In this document: piece after piece, positions 5,095-47,264 of the stretch
How the letters are laid out: each line of letters opens with the position of its first letter
How positions within the stretch are numbered: position 1 is the stretch's first letter
NCBI GenBank assembly: GCA_964608515.1
Contig: CAZSNS010000004.1
Location: 1,600 to 65,599 of the forward strand
Origin: Candidatus Hadarchaeota archaeon
GTDB lineage: Archaea > Hadarchaeota > Hadarchaeia > Hadarchaeales > JAGGTB01
Direction: 5' to 3'
DNA: 64,000 nucleotides
The notes under the pieces: generated by a model
What the model saw: only the letters and a program-made list of their open reading frames with translations
The model's database searches: none
Told to the model about the DNA's origin: nothing
Made by a program: the position numbers and the translations under genes

Positions 5095-5120
5095 TTTTTT
5101 GTTATGGGTGTAACAAAAAA
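5095..5120 (+). repeat. 25-bp palindromic intergenic element, copy 1 (TTTTTGTTA-TGGGTG-TAACAAAAA)
   Basis: Exact sequence read. 9-bp arms with a 6-nt loop and T/A tracts on both sides. Confidence 0.9.
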
Positions 5121-5167
5121 TTTTGAAGAATGTTTTAAAGGATAATAGTAAATTTTAGAACGATTTT

Positions 5168-6556
5168 ATGAATTCGAAAGAAGGATTGACTATTTTAGTT
5201 TTAATTTGGATCATTACTTTGCCCGTATTTCATCATTTTTACCCTTTCGTAGGGGAAGTTACTGATAATCCTTCATACCCTCCTGGGATAGACCATTCTA
5301 CTAGAGAAAATAGGTACAAAAATTACAATCAGTTGGCGAGTAAGATTGATGAAAATATTCCCGTTTTTAATGTTATTGGAAATCATGAATTGAAATCTAT
5401 CGAAAATTATGAGGAAGTTCATAACGATTATTATGGATATTTTCAATACTCGGACAAACCTTCAGCTGCCCCTAATAGTTTATCTCCATATTATTGGTAT
5501 TCCTGGAACCTTAACGGTTACCACTTTATCGCGCTAAATACAAACGAAAATTATACAAATCCATTTCTTCATGGTCACGGCCCTAAACATTTTTTTGGCG
5601 GAGCTTTTTCGATGACCAAAAAACAAATTGAATGGCTTAAGAATAACTTGAAAAAAACTGAAAATCCGACAATCGTCTTTTGTCACGTTCCTCTGGACGG
5701 TTACGGTCTGACAAGTTATGACACTCTCACTAATCAAGAGAAAATAAGAAATATTTTTGAAAAAAGCGGTAAAGTTGCGGCAGTTATTCAGGGGCATACA
5801 CATCATATGGCTAGTCCTGAATATAACGGGTATAAATGGGTTGATAATGGAATTCCTTATTTTTATTTACCAGCTCTAGGCTCACCTCTCGGCGGGCCTA
5901 GATATTCTGTTTTGAATCTAATGCCTGAAAAAAAGAGGATTGAGATTAGAACTGAAGCTATAGAAGAGGTAACTTCTCTTTTTTCGGATGAAAATTGGAA
6001 TGTTTCTTATCAAAAAAATCATGCTGAATCTTTCAAAATAAAAACTAGTTTCCACGTTTCTGAAGGTAAGAATCATTTTACTCTTAGAGACTTAGATTCA
6101 GATGTAGAATATGAAGCTAGTATTGGTTGGGAAAACTATACAGAGAACGAAATGGGAGATGTTGCAAATAAAGTTTTGAAAAAAAGAATTGTTAAAGGTC
6201 AGAGTAAAAATTTCAAGTTTAAACCCACCGAAAGTTTTGATTTCAGTAACATCGCTGGGGAAGATAATAAACCAGTTAAGATAGAGAACGTTAAGACTGT
6301 CGGTGATGTGACTAAGATCATTTACAGTTCAAGCTCCGAACTCTTCAAAACAAATCTCCAAATAAATAATTCAACTTCAAGAAATGTAGAAATTGCTGTT
6401 ATCAACGATTTTCACTCGGGTCCAAAAAGACTAGAATTATTTTCCCAAGAAAATGCAAACCGAATTTTTAAAAAATTTTCAGGAATTGTAAATTCACAAA
6501 AATTCAATTTTGTTGTAAACAATGGGGACTGGATAGACGGTCACCAAGCGAGGTAG
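5168..6556 (+). CDS. calcineurin-like metallophosphoesterase, N-terminally membrane-anchored or secreted
   Basis: 462 aa. Hydrophobic N-terminus, GNHE motif (VIGNHE), and the later GHTHH block of metallophosphoesterases. Confidence 0.5.
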   Translation: MNSKEGLTILVLIWIITLPVFHHFYPFVGEVTDNPSYPPGIDHSTRENRYKNYNQLASKIDENIPVFNVIGNHELKSIENYEEVHNDYYGYFQYSDKPSAAPNSLSPYYWYSWNLNGYHFIALNTNENYTNPFLHGHGPKHFFGGAFSMTKKQIEWLKNNLKKTENPTIVFCHVPLDGYGLTSYDTLTNQEKIRNIFEKSGKVAAVIQGHTHHMASPEYNGYKWVDNGIPYFYLPALGSPLGGPRYSVLNLMPEKKRIEIRTEAIEEVTSLFSDENWNVSYQKNHAESFKIKTSFHVSEGKNHFTLRDLDSDVEYEASIGWENYTENEMGDVANKVLKKRIVKGQSKNFKFKPTESFDFSNIAGEDNKPVKIENVKTVGDVTKIIYSSSSELFKTNLQINNSTSRNVEIAVINDFHSGPKRLELFSQENANRIFKKFSGIVNSQKFNFVVNNGDWIDGHQAR

Positions 6557-6559
6557 ATT

Positions 6560-7003
6560 ATGGAGAATTCCGTAAATTTAGACTCTCATTCCGAGAAAAA
6601 TGTTCTTGGGAGGCGGATAATCGGCGCTATTATTGATATCTTGTTAATCGTGCCGATTACATCCTGGATACTTTATTTTTGTCATAAGTTCGGTTTGATT
6701 GATTTAGGATCTATAGCTTATATTTTAGCAATTGGAACATTTGTCGGCTTATTGTTCATCTACACCTCTCTTTCAGAGGGGAAATCAGGACAAACTTTGG
6801 GCAAAGTAATTGCTAAAATTAAAGTTGTGAAAAAAGACGGGCGCGAATGTACTTATAAAGCATCATTGGTTAGAAACTTAGTCAGAATATTCCCCGACGG
6901 TTTATTTTTATATCTCGTCGGTTTAATTTCCATGATTTTCTCAGATAAGTCTCAAAGACTGGGAGATTACATGGCTAGTACTATTGTGGTGAAAGTTGAG
7001 TAA
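6560..7003 (+). CDS. RDD-family membrane protein
   Basis: 147 aa. RRIIGAIIDILL RDD-like N-terminus plus TM helices. Confidence 0.45.
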   Translation: MENSVNLDSHSEKNVLGRRIIGAIIDILLIVPITSWILYFCHKFGLIDLGSIAYILAIGTFVGLLFIYTSLSEGKSGQTLGKVIAKIKVVKKDGRECTYKASLVRNLVRIFPDGLFLYLVGLISMIFSDKSQRLGDYMASTIVVKVE

Positions 7004-7030
7004 TTTTTTTGTTATGGGTGTAACAAAAAA
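7004..7030 (+). repeat. 25-bp palindromic element, copy 2
   Basis: Exact match. It directly abuts the stop codon at 7001-7003. Confidence 0.9.
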
Positions 7031-7073
7031 TTTGAAGTGGGTAAATTTATTTGTGTTGTCCTGATGAGGATAG

Positions 7074-7631
7074 ATGGAGTCAGATATTTTGGCTGAAGAA
7101 AATGAAGAAGAAATAGAAGAAGAGGTAGAAGAAACCGAAGAAGTAGAAGAAGAGATCGAAGAGGAGCCGGAAGAGGAAGAGCCGCAAGAACTTGATAATA
7201 GTGAAATTGATGCTGTGCCGATGATTATGTGTTCTGACGATTCTGTTTTGATGGAAATTGAAGGAACTGAAATCAAGGAAACAGAGGAAAGGAGTTTTCT
7301 CTTTTCGACAAGTACTGAAAGTCATATGAATCTGAAGTATGTTTGTCCCAAATGTGGAAGACATTACTTCTACGACATGGAGCAAAAAAGACAGGGATGC
7401 TTTATAGCCACTGCAGCTTACGGAACTCCCTTCTCTCAAGAAATAAATGTACTTCGTAGATTTAGAGACTCTTATCTTGTACATAGAGAATGGGGACAGG
7501 AAATTGTTAACATGTATTATACCATCTCCCCGCCGATAGCTAATATTATTGAAAAAGACGATAATCTTAGAAAAATAGTCAGAACTTGCCTAAAACCCTT
7601 AGTAGAGCTCTTCAAAGAAAAAGATTCATAA
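7074..7631 (+). CDS. hypothetical protein: poly-E acidic N-terminus plus CPKC Zn-ribbon and a CFIATAAYG segment
   Basis: 185 aa. EEEIEEEVEE low-complexity run, CPKCGRHYFY, CFIATAAYGTP. Confidence 0.4.
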   Translation: MESDILAEENEEEIEEEVEETEEVEEEIEEEPEEEEPQELDNSEIDAVPMIMCSDDSVLMEIEGTEIKETEERSFLFSTSTESHMNLKYVCPKCGRHYFYDMEQKRQGCFIATAAYGTPFSQEINVLRRFRDSYLVHREWGQEIVNMYYTISPPIANIIEKDDNLRKIVRTCLKPLVELFKEKDS

Positions 7632-7826
7632 AAAATCAAAAACCAGTTCCATTCTTAATATTAGAGATTGGAAAACTCTTCGAAAAATCTAGATTTTAGG
7701 AACTGGATAGGCGTTTTTCGATCCGAGAAGTTAGTGTTTGGTAACAGTTTTCTCACGAATCCTAACTAAACGGGACACTTCATTCAGAATAGAATTTATG
7801 ATAAATAGCGACTCTAATAAAAGAGG

Positions 7827-7855
7827 TTTTTTTGTTATGGGTGTAACAAAAAAAA
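7827..7855 (+). repeat. 25-bp palindromic element, copy 3
   Basis: Exact match. It sits between convergent genes and abuts the stop at 7856-7858. Confidence 0.9.
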
Positions 7856-8416
7856 TCAGGAAATCTTCTCACGTAACGGTCTTATCCTTTCTTCCAACTT
7901 TTTAGAAAATTCTTCATTATCAGTCCAATCATGTCTCAATAAATTTTGGCATTCCTCTACTACCCTTCTGATTCTTTGAAGTTCTTCATTTCCAACTTTA
8001 TCTCGAGAGTCTATCGATAACAAGGAATCGATCTCAGAGTTCAAAGATTCTTCTCGTGTAACCTCAACCCTCTCCAAGACCCCTTTCATAGCTTTCATTC
8101 GGTCTTCTGATGGAAGAATTCCGTCGAAGGAGTATAAGTCGATTTTTTCCCATTTAGGATCGTTGAAAAAGTTATCGAGCGAGTTTTGAGCTGATTTTGG
8201 GATGGCGATTACGCTTTTTCCTAAACGTAAGTGAGGGAGAGGGGTGACGATGCCAGGGTAAAAATTTTCATAGACATTTTCTCGACCGTTTTTGTCCTCC
8301 CTAGTTGTTTTGGAGTTGAAACCGAAGAGTTTTCTATAAAATTTAGTTCTTTTTCCTCCTTTGAATTGGAGGTCGAAACTGTAAACTCGGGCTAATGTGT
8401 TTTTTTCTATTTTCAT
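7856..8416 (-). CDS. hypothetical protein (187 aa)
   Basis: The ORF-track N-terminal extension (CYTHNKK x2) is a translation of the palindromic repeats. The likely real start is the ATG at 8416 (MKIEKN...). Confidence 0.45.
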   Translation of the reverse strand: MKIEKNTLARVYSFDLQFKGGKRTKFYRKLFGFNSKTTREDKNGRENVYENFYPGIVTPLPHLRLGKSVIAIPKSAQNSLDNFFNDPKWEKIDLYSFDGILPSEDRMKAMKGVLERVEVTREESLNSEIDSLLSIDSRDKVGNEELQRIRRVVEECQNLLRHDWTDNEEFSKKLEERIRPLREKIS

Positions 8417-8420
8417 TGAT

Positions 8421-8444
8421 TTTTTGTTATGGGTGTAACAAAAA
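8421..8444 (+). repeat. palindromic element, copy 4 (right A-tract shortened)
   Basis: TTTTTGTTATGGGTGTAACAAAAA, located 5 bp upstream of the start codon at 8416. Confidence 0.85.
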
Positions 8445-8460
8445 TAAAACTTGTGAACCA

Positions 8461-8488
8461 CACACCCACCCCTTCGTTTCGACTGGAG
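8461..8488 (-). promoter_or_regulatory. ORB-like origin recognition box A (inverted)
   Basis: Minus strand reads CTCCAGTCGAAACGAAGGGGTGGGTGTG. That is a TCCAGTnGAAA dyad followed by a G-string. Confidence 0.45.
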
Positions 8489-8514
8489 TATAATAAAAAA
8501 TAAAAAAACAATTA

Positions 8515-8541
8515 TTTTTTTGTTATGGGTGTAACAAAAAA
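8515..8541 (+). repeat. 25-bp palindromic element, copy 5 (inside the AT-rich tract between the ORB-like boxes)
   Basis: Exact match. Confidence 0.9.
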
Positions 8542-8641
8542 TAAATAATAAACATAAGTACAAACAACAGTCAAGAAACAAAACAGAAAACGTCTATTAC
8601 TTATTAATAATAATTTTGCGCGGACACGGACTGATAATGGC

Positions 8642-8666
8642 TTCCAGTGGAAATGGGGGGGTGGGG
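8642..8666 (+). promoter_or_regulatory. ORB-like origin recognition box B
   Basis: TTCCAGTGGAAAT followed by GGGGGGGTGGGG. It matches the archaeal ORB dyad + G-string architecture and is inverted relative to box A across a 150-bp AT-rich tract. Confidence 0.5.
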
Positions 8667-8680
8667 TATGTTTTTCAATT

Positions 8681-9724
8681 TTATCTTGTAACTTCCTGTT
8701 GTTTTATGAATTCGTAAAGTTCTCTAGCTTCTTCGTCTTCTTGGAAGTGTTTTCGGATCGGTTTTACTAGTTTGTTTATATATCTTGATACGTTTTTCTT
8801 GAGATCTAGAGGGTGGAGTTCCCCTTGACGATAATCTTTCTCTAATTCAGAATATTTTTCATAGTTGAGGTCTCCGCCATAATCGTCCTTCCTTTCAATT
8901 TTCACAGTGTCGAAACTTTTGAAAATCAAATGTTTGGTATAATCTAAGATAGGATTTCCTTTGACTTGTTTTTCGGGACAGTAAGCTCCTTCTATTTTTT
9001 CCCAAATTTCTTCTTCAGAATCATGAACAAAAATCGAAGTCGATGGTTTACTCTTACTCATTTTCTCCCCCCCACTTTCACCTTGCAAACCCATCAACAT
9101 GTGATGTGAAACAGTCACAGGCTTCTCCCTACCAATCTTAGGAGCAATATCCCTCGCCAACATGTTCGCCCGTCGCTGATCCTGCCCTAACTGGCACATG
9201 TCCACATCAAGATGAAAAATATCAGTAGCCTGCATGCTCGGATAAAAAACCCAGGCCGCAGGGTTTTCCCCAGCGCTTTCTCTACCAGCTATTTTCAGGG
9301 CTCTTTGGGTTCTGTTTAGGGTGTGGTTTTTGGCTATTTTTAGGACGGTTTTCCAATATTTTTGGTCCATTATTTCGGAGGACCATAATATTTCTACTTT
9401 GTCCATTGGGACTCCGGCGGCTTTCCAAACTTCGATGAAATACTTTCCGACTTTTTGAATTTTTTCTAAATCCCCGTCCATTTTTTCGTTGATCCAGGCG
9501 TACCAATCAGCTAATAATAGCTTGAATCTTACACCGGCTTTGATCATTTTTTTGAGGTTCATTGCTCTGTATACTCCGAAAGCTATGTGTGCTTGGCCGG
9601 ATGGTTCGAATCCGTCGTAGGCTGTGGGGTGTTTTTTTGTTTCGAGTAGTTCTTCTAGTTCTTCGTTTGTGATTATTTCTTCTCCTACGTCTTTGATTAG
9701 GTTGAGTCTTTTTGTTACGTTCAT
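8681..9724 (-). CDS. tyrS: tyrosyl-tRNA synthetase (archaeal type)
   Basis: 347 aa. KMSKS motif and a C-terminus closely resembling M. jannaschii TyrRS (GNPI..., GGDL..YE.LE, ELHP.DLK). Confidence 0.8.
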   Translation of the reverse strand: MNVTKRLNLIKDVGEEIITNEELEELLETKKHPTAYDGFEPSGQAHIAFGVYRAMNLKKMIKAGVRFKLLLADWYAWINEKMDGDLEKIQKVGKYFIEVWKAAGVPMDKVEILWSSEIMDQKYWKTVLKIAKNHTLNRTQRALKIAGRESAGENPAAWVFYPSMQATDIFHLDVDMCQLGQDQRRANMLARDIAPKIGREKPVTVSHHMLMGLQGESGGEKMSKSKPSTSIFVHDSEEEIWEKIEGAYCPEKQVKGNPILDYTKHLIFKSFDTVKIERKDDYGGDLNYEKYSELEKDYRQGELHPLDLKKNVSRYINKLVKPIRKHFQEDEEARELYEFIKQQEVTR

Positions 9725-9834
9725 TGTTTTCCCTTCTTGTTTTGACCGTTGTTATTTTTAATCTGTGTTTGTTGGGAAAATCTACTGTATTATTCCTTTT
9801 TATATGTCTTTTTCCCAAATTGAAGAGGGTGAAG

Positions 9835-10659
9835 ATGAAAAAGAAATCACGATCTATTGCAATTTCTTCCGGAAAAGGGGGAACCGGGAAGACGACACTC
9901 ACGGCAAACCTCGGAATAGCACTAGCAAACGAAGGCCACGATGTCACAATTTTGGACGGTGATCTTAGTATGGCGAATCTTGGAATAGTGCTGGGGATGA
10001 AAAATCCCGCGGTTAGCTTTCTTGATGTCATTTCTGGCGATGCAGAATATGAAGATGCGATATATGAGGATTACGGAGTGAAAGTAATTCCCACAGGTTT
10101 CAGGTTTGAAGACATTCACGAATCTCTATCAAAAGTCGATCAAGACTTAGTAGAAGAAACAATCTCAAAAATATTACGAGAAACCGAATTCTTACTCATA
10201 GACGCACCCGCCGGCATGACAGACACAGCAATCATCTCAATAGCAGCAGCAAGAGAAATGTTACCAGTCACAAATCCAAACTACTCAAGCCTAGTCGACT
10301 GTTACAAAACCATCCGTTTGGCAAATGTTGTAGATACTTGGACTAGGGGCCTGGTGGTAAACCGGATAGGAAGATCCTCAGACATATCAAAAGGAGAGAT
10401 AGAACACTTTATGGGAGAAACTTTAGGATCCCTAAAAATATTGTCAGAGATTCCAGAAGATGAAACAGTCCAAAAAGCGGAAAGAGCCGAAACACCAGTC
10501 ATCATTTACGAACCCGAGGCCCAGGCGTCAAGACAAATATATAAACTTGCAGAAGTCATAACCGGAGAATCAGACTTACCTTACAAACCTTTTGAAGACG
10601 CTGAGATAGACAAAACCGTTGAGAGACTCTCCCGAGCACTTACCGGTTCTAGAAATTAG
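9835..10659 (+). CDS. MinD/ParA-family P-loop ATPase
   Basis: Deviant Walker A SSGKGGTGKTT. The start was reassigned to the ATG at 9835; the track's N-terminal extension overlaps tyrS. Confidence 0.7.
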   Translation: MKKKSRSIAISSGKGGTGKTTLTANLGIALANEGHDVTILDGDLSMANLGIVLGMKNPAVSFLDVISGDAEYEDAIYEDYGVKVIPTGFRFEDIHESLSKVDQDLVEETISKILRETEFLLIDAPAGMTDTAIISIAAAREMLPVTNPNYSSLVDCYKTIRLANVVDTWTRGLVVNRIGRSSDISKGEIEHFMGETLGSLKILSEIPEDETVQKAERAETPVIIYEPEAQASRQIYKLAEVITGESDLPYKPFEDAEIDKTVERLSRALTGSRN

Positions 10660-10666
10660 CATTTTA

Positions 10667-11416
10667 TTATTGTTCGAAACTTTCGGAAGGGATTTTTGTA
10701 AATATTCCGCTTATCCATAAAACCAGAACTATAAATGAAACTATACTTCCTCCTATCAGTCCCAATTGCAAACTGGAAGATTGAAGTATTTGGGCCTGTT
10801 TTGTTCCTAAAAATCCTTCAATAATTGCACCAATTATAATTAATAAAACTACAGAAGGGATCAGATCTTTCACTTCCCTCCCGGCTTTCTTTAATGGTGT
10901 TGTTTTTCGGTTTAGCACTGTTTTGATGCTCCCGATTCCTAGTCTTATTCCACAAGTTGTGGCGATTACATAACCGGTGAGTTCGAAAACTCCGTGAGGT
11001 AATAAAAATGCTAATCCTTGTTGTAATGGCATGCTGGCTTGGGATGTTATATATCCTATCATAAACCCGTTTAACAGTAACGCATAGAGAGAAAAAAGGC
11101 CGAAAGCTGTTCCTAGGCCGATTATTTGTATCGTGCTTGTTAGGTTGTTTCTTGCTAGGAATGTTATCCATTCTATGATTGTTCTTTCCTTTTGTGATTG
11201 GTTTGTTAACATTCTTCTGAAGGGTTCTGTTTGTGATTCGACTAGTTCGTTGATTGGGTTTGAACCTACTTGGTTTGCAATTAGGGCTATTCCTATTGCT
11301 AGGCCGAATATTATTGTTACTGTGATAAGGATGTGTTTATTTTTTCGAATTGATTTTGGGAAGTTTTTTCCAAAACTTTTCTTGGCTTTTTCTTTGAGTG
11401 ACGTTTTTTCGGTCAT
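10667..11416 (-). CDS. SpoIIM-like / DUF95 family integral membrane protein
   Basis: Multiple TM helices and LPHGVFELTGYVIA block. The start was reassigned to ATG 11416 (MTEKTS); the track extension overlaps the upstream gene's 3' end. Confidence 0.45.
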   Translation of the reverse strand: MTEKTSLKEKAKKSFGKNFPKSIRKNKHILITVTIIFGLAIGIALIANQVGSNPINELVESQTEPFRRMLTNQSQKERTIIEWITFLARNNLTSTIQIIGLGTAFGLFSLYALLLNGFMIGYITSQASMPLQQGLAFLLPHGVFELTGYVIATTCGIRLGIGSIKTVLNRKTTPLKKAGREVKDLIPSVVLLIIIGAIIEGFLGTKQAQILQSSSLQLGLIGGSIVSFIVLVLWISGIFTKIPSESFEQ

Positions 11417-11499
11417 TGTTCCAGAGGATTTTTTGATTCTTATCAATAATGAAACCTGCGAATTAAAATAAAAAAGAAAGAAGTGGTGGAATGTCTTTT

Positions 11500-15997: not shown

Positions 15998-17185
15998 ATG
16001 TACGAGGATATGTTTGAGGAAGAGATGGGAAAAGAGTCGATTTTTAAAGACCAGTCGATACTTTCTCCGGATTATGTACCTGAAAAGCTTGTTCATAGGG
16101 AAGAAGAGTTTAGGGAATTGGTACAACTGTTCAAACCCGTGTTGGAGGATGAAGCAAGTCAGAGAGTTCTAATCTCAGGCTCTGTTGGGGTTGGAAAAAC
16201 GGCTCTTGCTTCAAGATTTGGCGAGGTATTGGAAAAAGAAGCTAAAAAGAGAGACATGAATCTCACTTATGTTCATGTGAACTGTCGTAAACAGGGAACT
16301 CCTCAGATGGTTCTTCACGATTTGGCTTCTAATTTCCCCCTTACTGTTCCGAAGAGAGGTTTTGCCCCGCAAGAAATCATGAATCATGTGATTGACCATC
16401 TGGAGAAGAAAGATGTTTACCTAACGGTTACTCTGGACGAGTTAGATTACTTTATACGGCAAAACGGTCCCGATTTACTATACTCACTTTCCAGAGCTGC
16501 TGAAGAATCTGACGCGCAGAACAGGGTTAGCATAATAGCTACCTCCTTCTCACCAGACTTTTTGGAAACACTGGACGAAGCAACCCGAAGCACATTCATG
16601 CATAATCTGATAGAAATGGACAAGTATAACTCAGAACAACTCTTCGACATTCTTAATGAGAGAGCAGAAAAAGCCTTCAAACCAGGCACGGTCAAGGAAG
16701 AAACGCTCGATCTAATATCGAATATTGCATCAAGGAGAGGAGATGCAAGATTTGCTTTAGAATTATTATGGTTTTCAGGAAGGATAGCTAACAAAGGAAA
16801 CAAGGAAAATGTCTCACCTAACCATGCAAGAAAAGCAAAATCGGAAATAAATCCAGAAATTAGAAAAGACGTACTCCAAGACCTAAAAAAACACGAGTTA
16901 TTATCTTTACTAGCAATTTCCCGTCGTTTAAAAATTTCTGACGAAGCCTTCGCTCTCACAGGGGATGTAAAAGAAGCTTATAAGATAGTTTGCGAAGAAT
17001 ATGAAGAAGAACCTAGAAAACACGTACAATTCTTGTCCTATATAGACAAACTGGAAAACCTAGGACTGGTAGACACAGAAGAATCCAGAGGCGGACACAG
17101 AGGTCAAAGCCAAAAAATCAGCATATCAGACGCACCACCAGACCTGATGGAAGAAGAAATACAAAAAATCCTAAACAAAAAATAA
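15998..17185 (+). CDS. cdc6: Orc1/Cdc6 replication initiator
   Basis: 395 aa. Walker A GSVGVGKT, AAA+ plus a C-terminal winged helix. Confidence 0.85.
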   Translation: MYEDMFEEEMGKESIFKDQSILSPDYVPEKLVHREEEFRELVQLFKPVLEDEASQRVLISGSVGVGKTALASRFGEVLEKEAKKRDMNLTYVHVNCRKQGTPQMVLHDLASNFPLTVPKRGFAPQEIMNHVIDHLEKKDVYLTVTLDELDYFIRQNGPDLLYSLSRAAEESDAQNRVSIIATSFSPDFLETLDEATRSTFMHNLIEMDKYNSEQLFDILNERAEKAFKPGTVKEETLDLISNIASRRGDARFALELLWFSGRIANKGNKENVSPNHARKAKSEINPEIRKDVLQDLKKHELLSLLAISRRLKISDEAFALTGDVKEAYKIVCEEYEEEPRKHVQFLSYIDKLENLGLVDTEESRGGHRGQSQKISISDAPPDLMEEEIQKILNKK

Positions 17186-17194
17186 CCCAAAACC

Positions 17195-17286
17195 GGGGCG
17201 GTAGTCTAGCTAGGTTTCGGACACCAGCTTCGGGACCAACAAGGCGAAAAAGCTGGAGATCCGGGGTTCGAATCCCCGCCGCCCCA
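17195..17286 (+). tRNA. tRNA-Pro (anticodon CGG) with a 16-nt intron at canonical position 37/38
   Basis: Hand-folded cloverleaf: acceptor GGGGCGG/CCGCCCC, D-stem GTCT/GGAC, anticodon stem CCAGC/GCTGG, loop TTCGGG[intron 17235-17250]A, T-arm CGGGG-TTCGAAT-CCCCG, discriminator A. No encoded CCA. Confidence 0.7.
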
Positions 17287-17396: not shown

Positions 17397-17422
17397 TTTT
17401 TTGTTATGGGTGTAACAAAAAA
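17397..17422 (+). repeat. 25-bp palindromic element, copy 6
   Basis: Exact match, 110 bp downstream of the tRNA and abutting the 3' end of the wHTH gene. Confidence 0.9.
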
Positions 17423-39522: not shown

Positions 39523-39602
39523 CTAATTGTTTAAAATTAGTAATCCGAGCAAATTTTCTTAGTTCTAGCTAAGAAATTTTAACAAAACTAGAAAAAATAA
39601 TA

Positions 39603-40115
39603 ATGGAGTTCAAAGGAGGTGAGTCAGTGAAAATAGGAATAATGGCCGACACGCATGATCATTTGAATGCTACTGAGAAAGCTATCGGTTTTTTTAACGG
39701 TAAAGGAGTGGAGCATGTGCTCCATGCAGGAGATTTGATTTCTCCATTTACCGCTGGCATGTTTTCAGATTTGGAAGCGGAATTTCACTATGTTTGGGGA
39801 AATAACGATGGCGACCATTTACACACCAATTCTAAATTGGAAGAAATAGGAGCGGACCCCGGAGAAGAATTCAAATCTCTAGAAATAGATGGTCTCAAAA
39901 TAGCGTTATTGCATGGCACCGATAGGAACATAGTCGACTCTTTAGCAAAAAATGAAGAATTTGATTTAGTGGTTCGAGGACATACTCACGAACCAGAAAT
40001 CCAAGAAGATCCTCTAATGATAAACCCAGGACCAACTTCAGGCTATCTAGCCGAAAGACAAACAGTAGCAGTTTTCGACACGGAAAAAATGGAAGGAAAA
40101 ATCTCCGAACTATAA
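39603..40115 (+). CDS. YfcE/MJ0936-family metallophosphoesterase
   Basis: 170 aa. IGIMADTHDH, GDLISP, GNNDGD, GHTHEP. Confidence 0.65.
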   Translation: MEFKGGESVKIGIMADTHDHLNATEKAIGFFNGKGVEHVLHAGDLISPFTAGMFSDLEAEFHYVWGNNDGDHLHTNSKLEEIGADPGEEFKSLEIDGLKIALLHGTDRNIVDSLAKNEEFDLVVRGHTHEPEIQEDPLMINPGPTSGYLAERQTVAVFDTEKMEGKISEL

Positions 40116-40293
40116 TTTAAAAATACAAGAAAAATTTCTCGATTTAAAACCTCAAAAGCGGAGAAATACCGGAAACACTCTCCGAAATACAAAAAACATA
40201 TTGTGAAAAATTTTTCTTACCCTCCTGTTTCAAAAAATAAAAAAGAAAAGTAGAGCTTTATTTTTAAGAATACATCCAAAGAAAGGTGACTAT

Positions 40294-42516
40294 ATGCCAA
40301 CCGAACTATACCTGAAAGGATTATCAGAAAACTCAGGCCCCGGAGACGTGCTGGGAGCCATCGCGAATGAGGCTAATGTTGATGGGGATAGAATAGGGAA
40401 TATAGATATAAAAGGTTCTATAGCCTCTGTTTCCGTCGATGAAGAAATAGCTGATAAAATTCTTGAAGATTTAGAAAAAGTTTCAGGAAAATCAGTCACA
40501 GTTGCCCGTATAGATCGGGAAAATAAAAAATCTCATTTTTTCAAACTCGCAAAATTAGTCGAAATAGAAAGAGAAGAGGAAATGAAAAGACACGAAGAAG
40601 AAATAAAAAATATGTCAGGCCCTGAGAGAGAAGGGAAAGGAAGGGCTATACTTCATTTGAAAGGAAGGGATGAAGGGACGGGATTGGGCGGCAAGTTTTT
40701 GATTAAGTTCCTAAGACAGAGACAGGGTGAAACTCTTCCCGATACCGAGATAAGTATTGGGGACTTAGTAATGCTTTCAAAAGATGACCCTCTCAGAGAA
40801 GACAATCCAACAGGAACTGTATCGAAAAAGACGAACTATTCAATAACCGTCGCTTTTGACAATGAACCCCCAGGATTCCTTTACGGCAAAGGACTTAGAT
40901 GCGACCTATATGTCAACGATATCACATATCAAAGACAACTAGAAGCACTCTCAAGAGTAGTGGAGTCGGAAAACGAAAGAGTTGAGAGCCTCGCAAAAAA
41001 AGCTCTAAAAAAACAAGATATCGAATTTGGAGAAAAAAGAGAAAATATAAAATTTTTCAACGAAAATTTGAACCCTTCACAAAGACAAGCCGTCGGAAAA
41101 GCATTGTCGGCAAAAGATTATTTCCTTATCCACGGCCCGCCCGGGACTGGTAAGACTGTAACTTGTGTTGAGGTTGCTAGGCAACTGGTGGAGGAGGGGG
41201 AGGATGTTATTTGCACTGCTGATTCTAATACCGCGGTAGATAATTTAGTGGAATGGTTAGCGGAGGCTGGGGAGAAAGTTGTCAGAGTTGGTCATCCTGC
41301 TAGGGTGACTCCAACTTTAAGAAGTCATACTTTAGATGAAATTGTTCAACAAAATGAAAAATATCAGGAAAGTCAGGAGCTCAGAGAAAAAGCAAATGAT
41401 TTGATGGATAAGCAAGACGACCTAACTCACCCGAGTGGAAGATGGAGAAGAGGGATGAGCGATGAAAAAATAAAAGCTCTAGCCGAAAAAGGAAAAGGTT
41501 CGAGAGGAGTGTCCTCCTCCAAAATAAAGGAAATGGCTTCATGGTTAGAAATTCAGGAAAAAATCAACAATATTTTCTCAAAAATAGAAAGACTCGAGGA
41601 TGAAGCTGTGAATGAGATCTTGGAATGGGCAAATATAGTTTGCGCCACAAATTCCGGTTGCGGCTCTGAGTTATTGTCTGGTAAAGAATTTGACACGGTA
41701 GTAATAGACGAAGCCACTCAATCAACCGAACCGAGCTGTTGGATACCAATAACCCTAGCCAAAAAAGCGATAATGGCTGGAGATCACAAACAGCTTCCGC
41801 CCACAATTCTAAGCGAAAAAGCTAAAGAATTGAACCAAACGTTATTCTCTTCTCTTATAGAGAGATATGGAGAAAGAATCAGAAACATGTTAAAAATCCA
41901 GTACAGAATGCACGAAGATATTATGAATTTTTCAAATCACGAATTTTACGACGGGGTTTTAGAGGCTGATGATTCTGTGGCTAAGCATACTTTGAATGAT
42001 TTGATTGATTTTGAATCGGAAGGAGAGAATTGGTGTGAAAATGCGATAGCTCCGGATGTTCCTGTTGTTTTTGTTGATACTGTTGATATTGAAGCTGGTG
42101 AAAGGACCAGAAAAGGTTCTACTTCGAAAGAGAATCCTAAAGAAGCTGAACTTGTAGAATCAGTGGTTTCCAGACTTTTGGATACAGGTTTGGAGTCAGT
42201 CGATATTGCTGTGATTACCCCTTATGATGATCAAGTTGATTTGATAGACAGAAAATTAGATTTAGAAGATTTGGAAGTCGATACTGTCGACGGTTTTCAG
42301 GGGAGAGAAAAAGAAACTGTGATATTGTCTCTGGTCCGCAGTAATAGTAACGATAATATTGGGTTTTTAGAAGATGTTCGAAGACTAAATGTTTCTCTGA
42401 CAAGAGCTAAACGAAAATTGGTGATTATAGGGGATTCTTCAACTATAAGCGGACATGAAACTTATTCGAACTTGCTTGATTATGTCTCGGAAGTGGGAAA
42501 AATATTAAGATTATAG
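40294..42516 (+). CDS. Upf1-like superfamily-1 DNA/RNA helicase
   Basis: 740 aa. GPPGTGKT, VIDEATQ, GDHKQLPPT, VDGFQGREKE, SLTRAKRKLVIIG. Confidence 0.75.
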   Translation: MPTELYLKGLSENSGPGDVLGAIANEANVDGDRIGNIDIKGSIASVSVDEEIADKILEDLEKVSGKSVTVARIDRENKKSHFFKLAKLVEIEREEEMKRHEEEIKNMSGPEREGKGRAILHLKGRDEGTGLGGKFLIKFLRQRQGETLPDTEISIGDLVMLSKDDPLREDNPTGTVSKKTNYSITVAFDNEPPGFLYGKGLRCDLYVNDITYQRQLEALSRVVESENERVESLAKKALKKQDIEFGEKRENIKFFNENLNPSQRQAVGKALSAKDYFLIHGPPGTGKTVTCVEVARQLVEEGEDVICTADSNTAVDNLVEWLAEAGEKVVRVGHPARVTPTLRSHTLDEIVQQNEKYQESQELREKANDLMDKQDDLTHPSGRWRRGMSDEKIKALAEKGKGSRGVSSSKIKEMASWLEIQEKINNIFSKIERLEDEAVNEILEWANIVCATNSGCGSELLSGKEFDTVVIDEATQSTEPSCWIPITLAKKAIMAGDHKQLPPTILSEKAKELNQTLFSSLIERYGERIRNMLKIQYRMHEDIMNFSNHEFYDGVLEADDSVAKHTLNDLIDFESEGENWCENAIAPDVPVVFVDTVDIEAGERTRKGSTSKENPKEAELVESVVSRLLDTGLESVDIAVITPYDDQVDLIDRKLDLEDLEVDTVDGFQGREKETVILSLVRSNSNDNIGFLEDVRRLNVSLTRAKRKLVIIGDSSTISGHETYSNLLDYVSEVGKILRL

Positions 42517-42922
42517 AATTTTTCTAAGAATCCTGTAGTTTTTTGGATTAAGGTCTATCTTTTTTGTTTGGAAAGCGTGTTAATTTCCAACTTTGTATTT
42601 CAATATTAGCCAAGTTACGAGCAAGATTGCTCCAATTCCAACATATAGCAAACCTTTCCTTAAATACGAAGGATATGAGTTGTTCACTTGCGTCAGAGAA
42701 AATACTGATAGGGACAAAATCTTCTCATAGTGATGATTTTCATTCTGATTTGGAGTCTTTACCGTTTTTTTCATTGGAACCGTTTCAACTTTTACTTTAG
42801 ATATTTAAAATGATGTTACTTTCTATTGGAGAATAATTTTTCAGATTTTTTGAAAATAAAAATAATTAAAAACTTTCATTAAGGAAGTTTTTACAGTATC
42901 AGTTTGTTGAAAAGGGAAAAAA

Positions 42923-43972
42923 ATGAAAGAAGAATCTAAAAACGATAAAATTGCTGAAAATATTTTCGAGACTATTGGAAACACTCCCTTAGTGAAATTG
43001 GAAAAGCTACCCGAATTAGATGAAAGAAACGGTTCTATTTTAGGCAAACTTGAAATGTTCAACCCTACAGGGAGCTTGAAGGATAGGATATATTACAAAA
43101 TGATTACCGAAGCTATGGAAAGAGGGGAGCTAGAACCTGGAATGAGTATAATTGAGGCTTCAACAGGAAACGCTGGAATTGCTTGCTCCTTCACTGGAAA
43201 CCTGCTCGGTTTCGACGTAACGATCGTAATGCCTGAGGGTATGAGTGAAGAGCGACAAAAAATTATGGAAGCATATGGAGCAAATCTACTCTTCACCCCG
43301 GGAGGCGAAAGCGACGTAGATTTAGCTCTTGAAAAAGTACAAGAAATGAAAGATGAAAACCCAGGCCAATATTGGGAACCTGGCCAGTTTGAGAATGAGG
43401 ATAATCTTTTAGCTCATTATGAGACTACTGGTCCGGAGATTTGGGATCAAACTGATGGGGATTTAGATGCTTTTGTTGCCACTCAAGGGACGGGGGGGAC
43501 TATTTCGGGCATTGGTAGATTTTTGAAGGAGAAGGATTCCTCTATAAAACTTTATGCTGGAGAGCCTGAGGAGGCTCCGCTTCTTTCGGAGAGACAGTGG
43601 GGTAGTCATCGTATCGAAGGGATTGGGGATGGTTTTGTTCCGAGAAATCTTGATTTGTCAATACTGGACGGGATTATAACTTCTCGTTCTCAAGAATCGA
43701 TTGAAATGGCTCAACGTTTATCTAGAGAAGAAGGGCTTTTTTGTGGGATTTCTTCTGGGGCCAATGTTGTGGCTTGTCTTAAGCTTATGGAAGAGCATGA
43801 GGATTTCGATAGAATTGTGACCATGATTAACGATTCTGGTGAGAGATATTATTCTACGCCGTTGTGTGGTGTGGAGAAAGAGCTTGATGTTCCGGATAGG
43901 GAACATCCGATGGATGAGTACACTATTAAACAGCTTGATAAGTATCAGGAAGATTGGGAAATTATTAGGTGA
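42923..43972 (+). CDS. PLP-dependent cysteine synthase / cystathionine beta-synthase family enzyme
   Basis: GSLKDRI lysine motif and SIIEASTGNAGIA glycine-rich loop. Confidence 0.7.
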   Translation: MKEESKNDKIAENIFETIGNTPLVKLEKLPELDERNGSILGKLEMFNPTGSLKDRIYYKMITEAMERGELEPGMSIIEASTGNAGIACSFTGNLLGFDVTIVMPEGMSEERQKIMEAYGANLLFTPGGESDVDLALEKVQEMKDENPGQYWEPGQFENEDNLLAHYETTGPEIWDQTDGDLDAFVATQGTGGTISGIGRFLKEKDSSIKLYAGEPEEAPLLSERQWGSHRIEGIGDGFVPRNLDLSILDGIITSRSQESIEMAQRLSREEGLFCGISSGANVVACLKLMEEHEDFDRIVTMINDSGERYYSTPLCGVEKELDVPDREHPMDEYTIKQLDKYQEDWEIIR

Positions 43973-43973
43973 A

Positions 43974-45338
43974 TTATTTAATCCCAGCTTTTCTCATTAT
44001 TCCTCTAGCAGCTAGTATTCCTGTGACGCTTGCGTTGATAATGTCTCGGGAAAGTCCGGCTCCGTCTCCTGCTACGAATAAGTTCTCCATATCGGTTTCC
44101 ATATTTTCATCCACTTGAATTTGCATAGCGTAAAGTTTGACTTCAGGTGCATATAGAAGAGTGGAGTTTGAAGCTACTCCAGGAATCACATTATCTAATT
44201 GGTCTAACCCTTCTCTCAAGTTTGTCACGATTCTTCCTGGAAGTGCCATTGAAATGTCGCCTGGTGTGACACTTCTCAGAGTTGGTTCTATGTGTCCTCT
44301 TTCGATCCTGCTTAGGGTTGATCTTTGTCCCTGTCTTAAGTCTCCTAATCTTTGAACGACTGGTTTTCCTCCTCCGATTGTTGTCGCGAGATTGCCGATT
44401 GATCCTCCATAGGCGGTGGTGTCGGTTACGGGTTCGGTGAGGGTGACTCTTGAAAGGAATGCGAAATTAGTATTTTCAGATTTTTTGTGCCGAAAGCTGT
44501 GACCGTTGACGCCTATGTGGTTGTCGTATTTTTCTTCTACTACGAATCCTTGGTGATTGGTACAGAAGGTTCGGACGAAGTCGTCGAAAGTTTTTGTTCT
44601 TATGTGAAATTTTGGATCTCTGCTTACTTCCACTGCCGGTTCCATAACAATTGACGGTACTTCCACACGAACCCCTACATCTATAGCTCCGTGTGATAGG
44701 GACAAGCCTAATTTTTGCGCCTGTTTAGAAAACCATATCGCACCCGATCTTCCTGGAGCTGCAAGGATATAATCTGCTTCTATTTTTTCCCCATCTACAA
44801 TTATCCCGTTTTGCACGATATCTTCTACTTTAGATTTCAGTTCGAACTCTACACCTTTGCTTTCTAAATCTTTCTTGTAAGATTCGATAATGTCCGGTAG
44901 ATTTTCAGAACCGATGTGTCGTTGCTTGATAGGGATAAACTTAACATCTGCAGCGGCTGCTTTCCGGGCTAATTCTTCGGTTCCGGAAGTTTTCTTATCA
45001 TAAATCCGGTCCGGAGCTCCGTGTTTTTGAAAAATTGAATCTACATGATCAATCAATTCATAAGCTTCGTCCATATTTACAAACTGAGTAAGGTCACCAC
45101 CGATGTAAGGACTGAGATTTAAAGTCCCGTCCGACATACCTCCCGCCCCTCCTAAACCTCGCATCACATCACAAGGTTCACACTGGACACACTCGGCCGT
45201 ATCAGCAGCTGGACAATCTCTTTCAAGAATTGACTTACCCCTTTCAATAATTTTTATCGATAAGTCAGAGTTTTCTGCTAGTTCTTCAGCAGCGAACAGT
45301 CCGGCTGGTCCGGCTCCGAAGATGATAACATCAGTCAT
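43974..45338 (-). CDS. FAD-dependent oxidoreductase (NAD(FAD)-utilising dehydrogenase family)
   Basis: VIIFGAGPAGLFAA dinucleotide-binding motif. 454 aa. Confidence 0.55.
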   Translation of the reverse strand: MTDVIIFGAGPAGLFAAEELAENSDLSIKIIERGKSILERDCPAADTAECVQCEPCDVMRGLGGAGGMSDGTLNLSPYIGGDLTQFVNMDEAYELIDHVDSIFQKHGAPDRIYDKKTSGTEELARKAAAADVKFIPIKQRHIGSENLPDIIESYKKDLESKGVEFELKSKVEDIVQNGIIVDGEKIEADYILAAPGRSGAIWFSKQAQKLGLSLSHGAIDVGVRVEVPSIVMEPAVEVSRDPKFHIRTKTFDDFVRTFCTNHQGFVVEEKYDNHIGVNGHSFRHKKSENTNFAFLSRVTLTEPVTDTTAYGGSIGNLATTIGGGKPVVQRLGDLRQGQRSTLSRIERGHIEPTLRSVTPGDISMALPGRIVTNLREGLDQLDNVIPGVASNSTLLYAPEVKLYAMQIQVDENMETDMENLFVAGDGAGLSRDIINASVTGILAARGIMRKAGIK

Positions 45339-45401
45339 GTTTAGCCCTCACAAAATAATGGCTTCTGTATAAAAAAATTACCAATCCCGTGTAAACCAAA
45401 A

Positions 45402-46175
45402 TTATTCCTTCAAATTCTCTAGCTCGCCCAAAAAAGTCCCATCAAGCAAATGAACTTCAGCCCGATCCAAATCCACAGCATCCGACTTAAAAAGAGGACC
45501 TAAAAGATCCTCCGGAATCTCCCTATTGAACGCACCTCCACCCACTAACTTACTAAAAGCAGGAACAATCATAACCTCTGGCCCTTCTCCTTCTACAACT
45601 TTTCGAAGATTTTCCGGTAAATTCTCAATTTTTAGTTTCGTTTTAATCCAAGCCGATTCTTTAGCTTTACCACCAAGATCATCTCTAAACTCAATCGTGG
45701 GATGATTATGACCCATCACCAAAAAATCGGCTCTAATCAGGTCTTCTCCAGGCCAAGCATGTCCGTGTAATAATCCGATTTTTCCTTCTCCGATTGTTGT
45801 GCCTTTTGCTTCGTGTAGTTTTACATCTCTAGGGATTAGTCCTTCGATGTCTCCGTCATGGTTTCCAGGTGTGATTTCTACTTTTACCTCTTTGCTCAGG
45901 TCTGCAAAAAAGTCGGGTAAATATTCCCATTCTTCCCAGCTCGTAACTGGAATATTGTGTTTTACATCTCCCAGAAAAAACAATCTGTCCGCCCCTTCGT
46001 CGTTAATAATTTCAAACAAACGGTTCTGTACTTCGGGGACACGGTTTGGGATCTCGATTCCCTTTTTAGCCAGCTCTGCTGCGAGCCCTAAGTGAAGGTC
46101 GCCTACGGCTATAACTATCTCATCATCAAGCACGATTCTTAGCGCTGGAGTGTCGTGGATAGGTATTATTTTCAT
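45402..46175 (-). CDS. calcineurin-like metallophosphoesterase
   Basis: GDLHLG, GDVKHN, GNHD, GHNH motifs. Confidence 0.55.
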   Translation of the reverse strand: MKIIPIHDTPALRIVLDDEIVIAVGDLHLGLAAELAKKGIEIPNRVPEVQNRLFEIINDEGADRLFFLGDVKHNIPVTSWEEWEYLPDFFADLSKEVKVEITPGNHDGDIEGLIPRDVKLHEAKGTTIGEGKIGLLHGHAWPGEDLIRADFLVMGHNHPTIEFRDDLGGKAKESAWIKTKLKIENLPENLRKVVEGEGPEVMIVPAFSKLVGGGAFNREIPEDLLGPLFKSDAVDLDRAEVHLLDGTFLGELENLKE

Positions 46176-46227
46176 TTTAACCCTTGAACAATTAAGAAAA
46201 ATATCCTGACCTAAATTAAGCTAAGGA

Positions 46228-46252
46228 TTTTTGTTATGGGTGTAACAAAAAA
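46228..46252 (+). repeat. 25-bp palindromic element, copy 7
   Basis: Exact match. Confidence 0.9.
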
Positions 46253-46374
46253 TGGTGAATACTCCAAAACATCTTTAGCCATTATAACAATTACGAGAAG
46301 AATTTGTTCAATTTTTCGCAGTGTATGTGTTTTACAGCTTAAAAATCGATGTTTAGATAGAGATTATAGGTCTC

Positions 46375-46722
46375 TCAATCGTTTTCACGTGATATATAGG
46401 ATTTCAAATCCTCAACCACTTCCTCAAGCAAGTCAAGTTTCAGCTTTCCTATTTTCTCCTGTATGTCTTCATGCTTGAGGGTAATAATAACCCAAGGGGC
46501 GACATAGCTCTTTTTTGGAGCGCTACCCTTTATCCAGTGCTCTTCTCTTATCTCGATAACCTCTTCCCTTTTCCTAGTAGTCAAAGTGGCAGCTAAGTAC
46601 TCTTCTCCGTGAAACGGATGCTTTTTATTACTCAAGACCACCCATGGCCTGGGCCTGACCACGGATTTGAACGGTTCAGGACCCCAGACAACGTCTCCGC
46701 GACTGTAGGACAGATTTATCAC
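46375..46722 (-). CDS. possible MazF/PemK-like toxin
   Basis: 115 aa. SRGDVVWGPEPF...RPWVVLSN resembles the RGDIxxVDF...RPxLVLS N-terminus of PemK/MazF. Confidence 0.3.
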   Translation of the reverse strand: MINLSYSRGDVVWGPEPFKSVVRPRPWVVLSNKKHPFHGEEYLAATLTTRKREEVIEIREEHWIKGSAPKKSYVAPWVIITLKHEDIQEKIGKLKLDLLEEVVEDLKSYISREND

Positions 46723-47120
46723 TCCCGATCGAGCCAGTCTTCCTCGAGTTCTTCACCGAGCTTCTCGTTTGCAGTCTTTGTCCCGTAAACTTCGGATGCC
46801 AAGGTCGCTATTTTATCGTCCTCGGCTAAGGCCCAGTAGTTACCTTTGTGTCTCACCAGTCCTTTCTCCTTCAGTCTGGAGAGTGTCACTCCTATGCTTC
46901 CTTTTTTAATTCCGGTAGCTTCCATTATTTCCTTCCTTGTGAAGGCTTTGTCGGGGTTTTTCAGGAGGAATTTCAGAGTTTTTCCGGCGTTCGTTCCCTC
47001 CTCTATTTCGAGTGCTTTTTCTGGAGCCTTTTTGAACTGATCGATACTCACGGGCATATTGTGTAACAATATGTAACTAAAAGTAATAAAAGTTGAGGAT
47101 CGGGTGGGGAAAACGATCAA
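46719..47120 (-). CDS. winged-helix regulator (candidate antitoxin)
   Basis: 133 aa. FTRKEIMEATGIKKGSIGVTLSRLKEKGLVRHKGNYWAL. Overlaps the downstream gene by 4 bp. Confidence 0.4.
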   Translation of the reverse strand: MIVFPTRSSTFITFSYILLHNMPVSIDQFKKAPEKALEIEEGTNAGKTLKFLLKNPDKAFTRKEIMEATGIKKGSIGVTLSRLKEKGLVRHKGNYWALAEDDKIATLASEVYGTKTANEKLGEELEEDWLDRE

Positions 47121-47238
47121 AGGATACTTGCGACATTATCCGCTCAAGTGAAGCTTATCCACGATATAATAACTGTAAGATCGGGAAAAAGCCATTTACT
47201 GCGGTCCTAATGAAAGGTTACGGGCAAAAAATCCCTAA

Positions 47239-47264
47239 TTTTTTGTTACACCCATAACAAAAAA
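47239..47264 (-). repeat. 25-bp palindromic element, copy 8 (only copy in reverse orientation, loop CACCCA)
   Basis: TTTTTTGTTACACCCATAACAAAAAA. Confidence 0.9.

Follow-up and report, generated by a model that had tools for sequence, protein, structure and literature searches.

The window analyzed here, a 64-kb stretch (64,000 nucleotides) of contig CAZSNS010000004.1 from Candidatus Hadarchaeota archaeon, contains eight exact copies of a 24-nucleotide palindrome, TTTTTGTTATGGGTGTAACAAAAA, which belong, as judged from their conservation in related genomes, to a deeply conserved family of probable protein-docking sites; one of them lies within what looks like a previously unannotated replication origin. 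Our favored reading, to which we assign a probability of about 0.45, is that the 24-mer is the recognition site of a dimeric protein and would act as an operator, an origin site, and an orientation-independent boundary element. The family consists neither of simple terminators nor of junk repeats, and no described family that matches the 24-mer was found: an Rfam scan of the window placed no known RNA family over the element, and every family tested fails at least one defining feature. The observation itself, first made in an initial annotation that reported eight identical palindromes, is real and far beyond chance. No further copies with one to three mismatches occur in the 64 kb, and the enrichment over a shuffled background, on which that annotation had made its claim depend, was obtained, with eight copies observed and none in 100 dinucleotide shuffles of the window.

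The consensus derived from 81 related copies is A-T6-GTTA-TGGGTG-TAAC-A6-T, that is, an 11-6-11 arrangement of 28 bp including the flanks, in which the T-run and the A-run beside the core vary from 4 to 7 and from 3 to 8 nucleotides, respectively. A unit of 25 bp had been described initially; its palindromic nature stands, while its length is corrected to 24 nucleotides (28 bp with flanks), and the positions given for the copies, all of them real, were off by 0–2 nucleotides because the T-run is variable. Beyond the T- and A-runs, the flanks of the window copies are mutually unrelated, no conserved sequence extends past 24–28 bp, and neither an internal body nor the terminal-inverted-repeat layout of a miniature inverted-repeat transposable element (MITE) was found; the 81 copies show no target-site duplication, direct-repeat flanks occurring at chance frequency. 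A search of the window for TTGTTA-N6-TAACAA with a relaxed center revealed no extra sites and no variant centers, and no half-sites of the 24-mer were found there. Every copy is intergenic, as had been stated before, according to both the open reading frame (ORF) calls and the Pfam-supported gene calls, and the peptide CYTHNKK, previously ascribed to mistranslation of the element, indeed arises in a spurious N-terminal extension of the ORF at 7856..8581(−), which runs across two copies, the true start being at 8416.

The exact scan with the central 18-mer over 185,579 species genomes yielded 72 loci, 57 of which are in five Candidatus Hadarchaeota metagenome-assembled genomes (MAGs), the other 15 being single matches in unrelated genomes that are devoid of the T and A flanks. 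With the contig of the window as the sixth and L077 as the seventh (L-numbers such as L005 and L077 denote related loci or contigs compared with the window), seven genomes are thus known to carry the site, and a metagenome scan added 30 loci. Carriage by viruses was considered and rejected, as the three matches in IMG/VR also have no T and A flanks and represent chance matches. The best-assembled MAG (CAYLJV) contains 19 copies, and about 20 per genome are present in at least six related species. Hadarchaeota DNA totaling 463 kb holds 61 exact 24-mers, 17 that differ only at the outermost base, and four or five true variants, and 705 kb of related DNA contain 116 full sites essentially without internal variation. 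In a four-species alignment of the region 7800–8700 of the window, the three copies and two origin recognition boxes (ORBs) are invariant, the copies being conserved at least as well as the boxes, whereas the coding DNA is 65–75% identical and the intergenic DNA is otherwise barely alignable. This pattern of substitution indicates that the 24-mer is under purifying selection across species.

The conservation extends, in altered form, to distant relatives in which the orphan protein encoded beside the origin (see below) is about 45–50% identical. At equivalent positions, some of them carry TTTGTTAC-AYRT-GTAACAAA, a perfect palindrome, and others TTGTTA-TATATA-TAACAA; the genomes with such variant sites include one of 59% G+C. 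Within single relative loci the centers differ (CACGTG, CATATG, CATGTG, and TATATA) and are mostly palindromic, one contig of the MSBL1 lineage holding both TGGGTG and CAGGTG centers, and the distant relatives keep the arms but have only TTTG in place of the T-run. Since they share the arms at the same positions with other centers, the arms are ancient and the center is lineage-specific, having been fixed as the asymmetric TGGGTG in the clade of the window. The search of related genomes that had been proposed for the element has thus located it in Hadarchaeota relatives and, in variant forms, in MSBL1. Several MAG and metagenome contigs (L033/L025, L085, L088, L091, L100, L101, and L103) end exactly at the palindrome, so that assemblies of this group from short reads are interrupted by the repeat.

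Positions are also conserved around 8455–8670, a region which looks, by its sequence layout, like a previously unannotated chromosomal replication origin (oriC). The general layout of archaeal origins has been described (PMC4010727), as have the core motifs TTCC..GAA and TTCCAGTGGAACT of the Pyrococcus ORBs (PMC1904270), and both boxes in the window match this core, ORB2 with the core string TCCAGTGGAAATGGGGGGGT on the plus strand at 8643–8662. The region thus has the inverted ORB boxes, with the TTCC..GAA core and G-string, around an AT-rich stretch that typify an archaeal oriC (Table 1). The orc1/cdc6 gene is located at 15998–17185, 7.3 kb from the origin and not adjacent to it. The origin locus is conserved in at least seven related genomes, and the arrangement of boxes and palindromes, in which copy 5 is within the AT-rich region and copy 4 is just outside ORB1, recurs in L005, L014, L018, L077, L086, and L104, with variant sites in L074, L076, and L081. 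The position of copy 5 is kept in L005, L014, L018, and L077, and variants occupy it in L076 (5892), L074 (3741), and L081; copy 3 is invariant in L018, L014, L005, and L077, with a variant at the equivalent position in L076 and L074. In L074 and L076, both genes beside the origin are transcribed outward, so that the origin-internal copy is not there as a terminator. In all lineages examined, a MinD/ParA-family ATPase gene is found next to the tyrosyl-tRNA synthetase (TyrRS) gene beside the origin (window 9712–10659 (+); L074 1542–2366; L076 2034–2858; L077 7790–8608). A second ORB-like string, CACCCCCCCCCAAATTCGAGAGGAG, was noticed in L077 (reverse complement) at about 1880–1920, beside the flavodoxin gene; this site is a synteny break, and the window has palindrome copy 1 there instead.

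Bracketed by copies 3 and 4 is a lineage-specific gene for a 186-aa protein, for which copy 4 lies between a TATA-like box, TTTATTTTT (minus-strand reading), and the ATG, a geometry that suits, as far as the sequence tells, the operator of a leaderless gene. The order of TATA-like box, site, and ATG recurs in at least six lineages (L005, L014, L018, L077, L027, and L076), and in CAZEBR (L027) the promoter copy is retained though the gene has left the origin; the gene is always either beside the origin or preceded by the palindrome. The 35 close homologs of the protein all come from Hadarchaeota or MSBL1, its relatives number only 47 among 1.84 billion representative proteins, and the protein matches no Pfam or NCBIfam family. 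Its AlphaFold2 model (predicted local distance difference test score, 93.5) consists of a basic, ferredoxin-like N-terminal domain (isoelectric point (pI) 9.7) with the topology beta-alpha-beta-beta-(hairpin)-alpha-beta and an acidic, four-helix C-terminal domain (pI 5.1). Foldseek searches against the PDB and BFVD gave no significant match for the model, the nearest topologies being Cas2- and RRM-like; in some remote relatives, the C-terminus gives winged-helix signals that stay below the threshold. The invariant residues contain no HUH motif, the fold does not match TnpA/RAYT, and family and profile searches revealed no ParB/SegB signature. In MSBL1, homologs of the gene travel with an ORB-like box and an integrase gene, which suggests that the 186-aa module may have a history on mobile replicons. 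Because the gene is constantly bracketed by the site, its product is our best guess for the cognate binder.

Table 1. Positions of the palindrome copies, the predicted origin elements, and the bracketed orphan gene in the window.
Feature	Position	Strand	Context
Copy 1	5096..5119	+	Divergent intergenic region; flavodoxin start 34 nt away, metallophosphoesterase start 48 nt away
Copy 2	7006..7029	+	2 nt past the stop of an RDD-family gene; 44 nt upstream of the CFI-box-CTERM ATG
Copy 3	7829..7852	+	3 nt beyond the stop of the minus-strand 186-aa orphan gene
186-aa lineage-specific gene	7856..8416	-	Bracketed by copies 3 and 4
Copy 4	8421..8444	+	Upstream of the 186-aa gene, 4 nt from its ATG; TATA-like box on the far side
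ORB1 (putative)	8460..8490	-	Reads TCCAGTCGAAACGAAGGGGT on the minus strand at 8468-8487; conserved in 4 genomes
AT-rich duplex-unwinding region (putative)	8491..8639	.	About 150 bp between the ORB boxes
Copy 5	8517..8540	+	Within the AT-rich unwinding region of the putative oriC
ORB2 (putative)	8640..8668	+	Inverted relative to ORB1; reads TTCCAGTGGAAATGGGGGGGTGGGG
Copy 6	17398..17421	+	Follows an intron-containing tRNA gene by 111 nt and the stop of a convergent PadR/wHTH gene by 10 nt
Copy 7	46228..46251	+	Upstream of a 257-aa metallophosphoesterase gene (-), 52 nt from its ATG; 123 nt after a MazF-like gene
Copy 8	47240..47263	-	Divergent intergenic region; upstream of both a PEMT-like methyltransferase gene (50 nt) and a MarR-like gene (119 nt)

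The copies are tied to gene boundaries. Among 74 copies with two called neighbors, 15 are between convergent, 14 between divergent, and 45 between tandem genes. The impression in the initial annotation that they hug stop or start codons is borne out by the 60 copies facing a 3′ end, 17 of which (some being orthologs of one another and hence not fully independent) lie 0–4 nucleotides from the stop codon, where 4.1 would be expected if copies were spread evenly over the intergenic region; no simulation out of 200,000 gave as many as 17. Distances to start codons range from 0 to more than 100 nucleotides and cluster at 0–4 and 41–54 nucleotides, and no constant spacing between the element and a TATA box was found. 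The neighboring genes have no common functional theme. The copies are also enriched around oriC: eight are present in the 64 kb of the window, and in CAYLJV, whose contigs are not ordered, the origin contig of 88 kb carries seven of 19 (P about 2e-5 to 7e-5), whereas 527 kb of contig 1 contain none (P about 1e-3 to 4e-3).

As for orientation, the count of seven out of eight copies in one direction, copy 8 being the sole minus-strand copy in the window, was correctly reported as a strand bias, but the weight placed on it is probably not warranted: the bias is weak alone (two-sided binomial, about 0.07) and is likely noise. It is probably not functional, because the orientation is independent of gene direction (6:6 relative to the abutting gene among independent stop-adjacent cases), does not switch across the origin, and is reversed in one ortholog. 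In that ortholog, the counterpart of copy 7 in L016 (1766–1789), the 6-bp center is exactly reverse-complemented while the arms and the left flank align; this is a micro-inversion of the hairpin-loop type, and it shows that flips occur and are tolerated. A polarity related to replication direction, as in KOPS- or Chi-like sequences, was ruled out, the orientation being equal on both sides of the origin.

We infer the binding of a protein, its identity, and any roadblock or origin-regulating effect from the sequence of the element, its conservation, its positions, and its symmetry. According to our favored reading, the 24-mer (28 bp with flanks) would be the site of a dimeric, sequence-specific double-stranded DNA-binding protein peculiar to Hadarchaeota and MSBL1, the arms placing GTTA and TAAC one helical turn apart and the center being either read as well or constrained in shape. 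The ancestral sites would be those at the chromosomal origin: one inside the unwinding region; a second between the ORB box and the orphan gene, covering the TATA-to-ATG interval as an operator; and a third abutting the stop codon of the orphan gene. If the 186-aa protein, the leading candidate, is the binder, its gene would be autoregulated, and at the origin the bound protein would occupy the unwinding region and the flank of ORB1. In the clade of the window, the site would then have been copied to about 20 identical places at gene boundaries, with enrichment around oriC, where the bound protein together with the T- and A-runs may stop polymerases arriving from either side, serving at 3′ ends as a roadblock or terminator and upstream of promoters as an insulator that shields promoters about 40–50 nucleotides away.

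This reading takes up the protein-binding site proposed as an alternative in the initial annotation, which turned out to be the best-supported of its suggestions, in view of the purifying selection, the spacing of the arms, the symmetric centers in relatives, and the operator-like position of copy 4. Constant arms combined with a lineage-specific center make the pattern of a dimer-binding site rather than that of an RNA hairpin, and the 6:6 orientation together with the exactly flipped ortholog indicates that DNA rather than RNA is recognized. The site in the unwinding region, kept even where both neighboring genes are transcribed away from it, also counts in favor, as do the non-random placement at stop and start codons, the enrichment near oriC, the weak hairpin, and the confident model of the orphan protein with its basic N-terminal domain. 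Like the operators of autoregulated archaeal transcription factors and the sites of origin-binding regulators such as CtrA of Caulobacter, the element is a palindrome with half-sites one helical turn apart, of which one copy overlaps the TATA-to-start interval of a conserved gene and others are within the replication origin and at other promoters. Unlike them, it has 22–24 invariant positions and no weak sites, a fifth of its copies are between convergent genes, and many are at stop codons; at least six lineages have the site of the 186-aa gene in an operator position, and elsewhere many sites are at 3′ ends. Reb1, Abf1, TTF-I, and mTERF are eukaryotic roadblock or boundary factors. They resemble the presumed factor, by analogy only, in that one sequence is used at 3′ ends, upstream of promoters, and at origins, in either orientation. 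We know of no Reb1/Abf1-type roadblock factor in archaea.

Several points weigh against the favored reading. Ordinary transcription factor sites are degenerate, whereas 22 positions never vary here and neither weak sites nor half-sites occur in the window, and such invariance is less typical of a classical regulon than of an enzyme's recognition site or of copies made from one master. Roughly 20% of the copies are between convergent genes, where promoters are not expected, and the neighboring genes do not share a function. The 186-aa protein has no recognizable DNA-binding fold and no significant structural neighbor; one-arm hybrids of the site beside an integrase gene and synteny breaks at copy edges (both described below) point to recombination; and the roadblock effect of the bound protein is purely our inference. 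Going further, one may imagine that the palindrome and the 186-aa protein form a new origin-associated DNA-binding system of Hadarchaeota and MSBL1, a speculation that we regard as rather doubtful. A single factor would then dock where oriC unwinds, act as repressor of its own gene, and occupy some 20 boundary sites, most of them in the part of the chromosome near the origin, thereby coupling replication control or chromosome organization with the insulation of transcription units; it would be an archaeal counterpart of CtrA or of Abf1/Reb1-type factors, or a new kind of centromere, and mobile elements bearing an integrase would also exploit the site for attachment.

Gains and rearrangements are seen at the copies. 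The close relative L077 has neither copy 1 (5096) nor copy 6 (17398), copy 2 is kept in L038 and L077, and extra copies are present in L077 (12338) and L016 (3506); since an exact 22-mer cannot recur by point mutation, such lineage-specific gains need some copying process. Synteny with relatives is interrupted at the edges of copies: at 5120, L038 is without most of the metallophosphoesterase gene; at 5051–5126, the copy is missing from L077, which carries three additional genes; at 7830, L077 is longer by 2.7 kb, with a further copy in this DNA; at 46253, L016 carries different genes; and at 17398 the low-GC segment of the window (26.5 kb, 17.4–44 kb), of which copy 6 marks the left edge, is missing in CAYLJV. 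The statistics of these breakpoints are weak (2 of 2 against L077, in 4 of 14 intergenic regions; about 0.07). In addition, there are four hybrid sites in which TTA-TGGGTG-TA and one arm are exact and the other arm is replaced. Two of them, 95 bp apart on the MSBL1 single-cell contig L073 (2813–2931), are directly upstream of a 531-aa Phage_integrase gene (3004–4599), and their foreign arms are complementary to each other at 6 of 9 positions; the integrase gene is followed by an ORB-like box and by a gene homologous to the 186-aa one. By its sequence, this arrangement looks like a mobile replicon integrated into the palindrome with attL/attR-like products.

These features make a core site of a tyrosine recombinase (dif-, pdif-, or lox-like), bound by a XerA-like enzyme or an integrase and delimiting modules or attachment sites, the main rival of a dimer-binding site, although an unlikely one. 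The 11-6-11 anatomy matches the dif architecture of archaea and bacteria, with 11-bp imperfect inverted arms and a 6-bp spacer (PMC2958812, PMC11840125), and, as in dif/XerA and the pdif sites of Acinetobacter plasmids, the center is asymmetric (and identical in all copies of the clade), one-arm hybrids occur beside an integrase gene, and gene content varies at the edges (5120, 7830, 17398, and 46253), with different genes beyond them. The tight hugging of ORFs, reminiscent of cassette boundaries, and the direct orientation of seven of the eight window copies would fit as well. However, dif is a single-copy site near the terminus, whereas about 20 copies enriched near the origin exist here, and so many direct and inverted sites would destabilize a 1.5-Mb chromosome; the mixed, mostly palindromic centers within single loci of related lineages would block or scramble exchange; and the three origin sites have kept their syntenic positions over deep divergence. 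No transposase or integrase was found among about 58 ORFs scanned in the window, none of the Hadarchaeota loci has a recombinase gene next to its origin sites, tblastn with the MSBL1 integrase gave no match in any of these loci, and an attachment-site search for partial copies came up empty at the other end of the 26.5-kb segment. The hybrids and breakpoints are equally explained by mobile elements using a conserved host site as attB or by rearrangement between dispersed repeats.

A mobile element of the repetitive extragenic palindrome (REP) or MITE type had been suggested in the initial annotation. A selfish repeat of this type, copied by a dedicated enzyme, tolerated only between genes, and with the 186-aa gene as the analogue of RAYT, is, on the present evidence, improbable. 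The copies are identical without degenerate versions, their lineage-specific presence and absence implies copying, several contigs break at the repeat, and the orphan gene is bracketed by copies and encodes a ferredoxin-like N-terminal domain. REP/BIME elements with RAYT are likewise short extragenic palindromes that follow stop codons, occur in both orientations, are identical within a genome, and flank a small gene. They differ in numbering hundreds rather than about 20, and in the present element the 186-aa gene is flanked by direct rather than inverted copies, no HUH/Y1 enzyme or TnpA/RAYT fold match was obtained, and copies are placed within the origin and over a promoter, positions that appear functional rather than neutral. 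Although some copying is implied, a longer body, target-site duplication, and a nearby transposase are lacking, and the core sites are kept at orthologous, syntenic positions under purifying selection, including in lineages with diverged centers.

Termination of transcription by archaeal RNA polymerase at oligo-T stretches is well established, and the claim that the T-run/hairpin/A-run layout forms a bidirectional terminator was partly sustained. Runs of T5–7 are present on both strands, at least five T residues on the non-template strand are found just downstream of genes, a T5+ run follows 22 of 59 gene ends here, several convergent gene pairs are separated by little beyond one copy, and the 17 of 60 copies placed 0–4 nucleotides after a stop codon are where terminators would be. 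What such a plain intrinsic terminator, stopping polymerase from both sides with nothing else being recognized, leaves unexplained is the invariance of the 14-bp core including the non-pairing center, the location of about 20% of the copies in divergent promoter regions, the copy 0–4 nucleotides upstream of a start codon in at least six lineages, and the origin-internal copy kept where no transcription converges on it. The element is used by only about 1–2% of the genes, and the distant relatives keep the arms but have TTTG instead of the T-run, so that the pattern expected for a terminator alone, in which elements stand where transcription must end and the T-run is the sole requirement, is not seen. 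With −4.4 to −5.8 kcal/mol at 37 °C, the hairpin has little stability, and its U-run comes before the stem instead of after it. We therefore consider this explanation quite improbable, and termination, which the flanking runs probably do bring about, is at best a side effect, a plausible by-product of the site. A function as an RNA hairpin was ruled out, the orientation being random with respect to genes and the stem being weak; the two orientations of the element also give different RNA loops.

A centromere-like or chromosome-organizing site, analogous to parS/ParB or archaeal SegB systems and used by a segregation or SMC-positioning protein together with the MinD/ParA-type ATPase, appears very improbable. 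What recommends it is that both the window and CAYLJV show enrichment of the copies around oriC, with none in a stretch of 527 kb, that the ATPase gene stands beside the TyrRS gene and oriC in the window, L074, L076, and L077, that the sites flank a small orphan gene and overlap its promoter as in par operons, and that the sequence is as highly conserved as parS, which also occurs as a few palindromes per genome. MinD paralogs, however, are common in archaea, where no action of theirs on DNA sites is known; the orphan and ATPase genes do not form a par-like operon, as the TyrRS gene and the origin are between them, and no ParB or SegB homology was found. Copies are also located far from the origin contig, and segregation offers no reason for their strictly intergenic placement so close to stop and start codons. 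Integron attC sites were rejected. An attC site is 50–150 bp long, has R″/L″-L′/R′ boxes (RYYYAAC ... GTTRRRY), and depends on an adjacent IntI/attI. The present element resembles it as an imperfect palindrome directly after stop codons with one orientation in a local array, but is of the wrong size (24–28 bp) and box order (GTT...AAC, not AAC...GTT), has no IntI nearby, and forms an array that is syntenic across species and includes the origin; attC sites have been reported in archaea including Hadarchaeota (PMC9668308).

Returning to the favored dimer-binding site, its significance lies in offering a sharply defined and testable handle, 22–28 invariant bases at about 20 places that mark a predicted origin and a candidate protein partner. 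Hadarchaeota are uncultured, and to our knowledge it is not known how their replication starts, how their transcription ends, or how their chromosome is organized; following up the palindrome has led to an unannotated putative oriC and a candidate new origin-associated protein in this phylum. If the link to the origin is true, a factor beyond Orc1/Cdc6 would be added to the architecture of archaeal origins, and if the boundary function is true, the element would be a sequence-specific roadblock or insulator, the first in archaea that we know of. In practical terms, the repeat causes false N-terminal extensions of ORFs and contig breaks in the MAGs of this group.

The remaining contents of the window identify it as archaeal: it contains orc1/cdc6, two PurP genes, an aldehyde:ferredoxin oxidoreductase gene, and an intron-containing tRNA gene. 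The last, 92 nucleotides long at 17195–17286 (+) and directly downstream of orc1/cdc6, was missed by ARAGORN and is supported by Rfam at 52 bits; the RNA scans of the window gave no other hit. The 26.5-kb segment at 17422–43973 separates the tRNA-proximal palindrome from an FAD-dependent oxidoreductase gene, the two being adjacent in CAYLJV; its left part has a G+C content of 0.30–0.36 and encodes an M78/IrrE-like peptidase, an 802-aa HD protein, and HD-CE, HEPN/RES, and Mrr-like nuclease domains, a content that suggests that the segment is probably a defense island, and neither an integrase nor a repeat was found at its right end. Between the two rightmost palindromes, at 46375–47120 (−), a MazF/PemK-like toxin gene and a MarR-like wHTH gene share 4 nucleotides, and the two genes may constitute an unusual toxin–antitoxin pair. 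The PurP-type (DUF1246/DUF1297) genes are arranged in tandem at 2228–4547 (+) and encode proteins of 366 and 402 aa.

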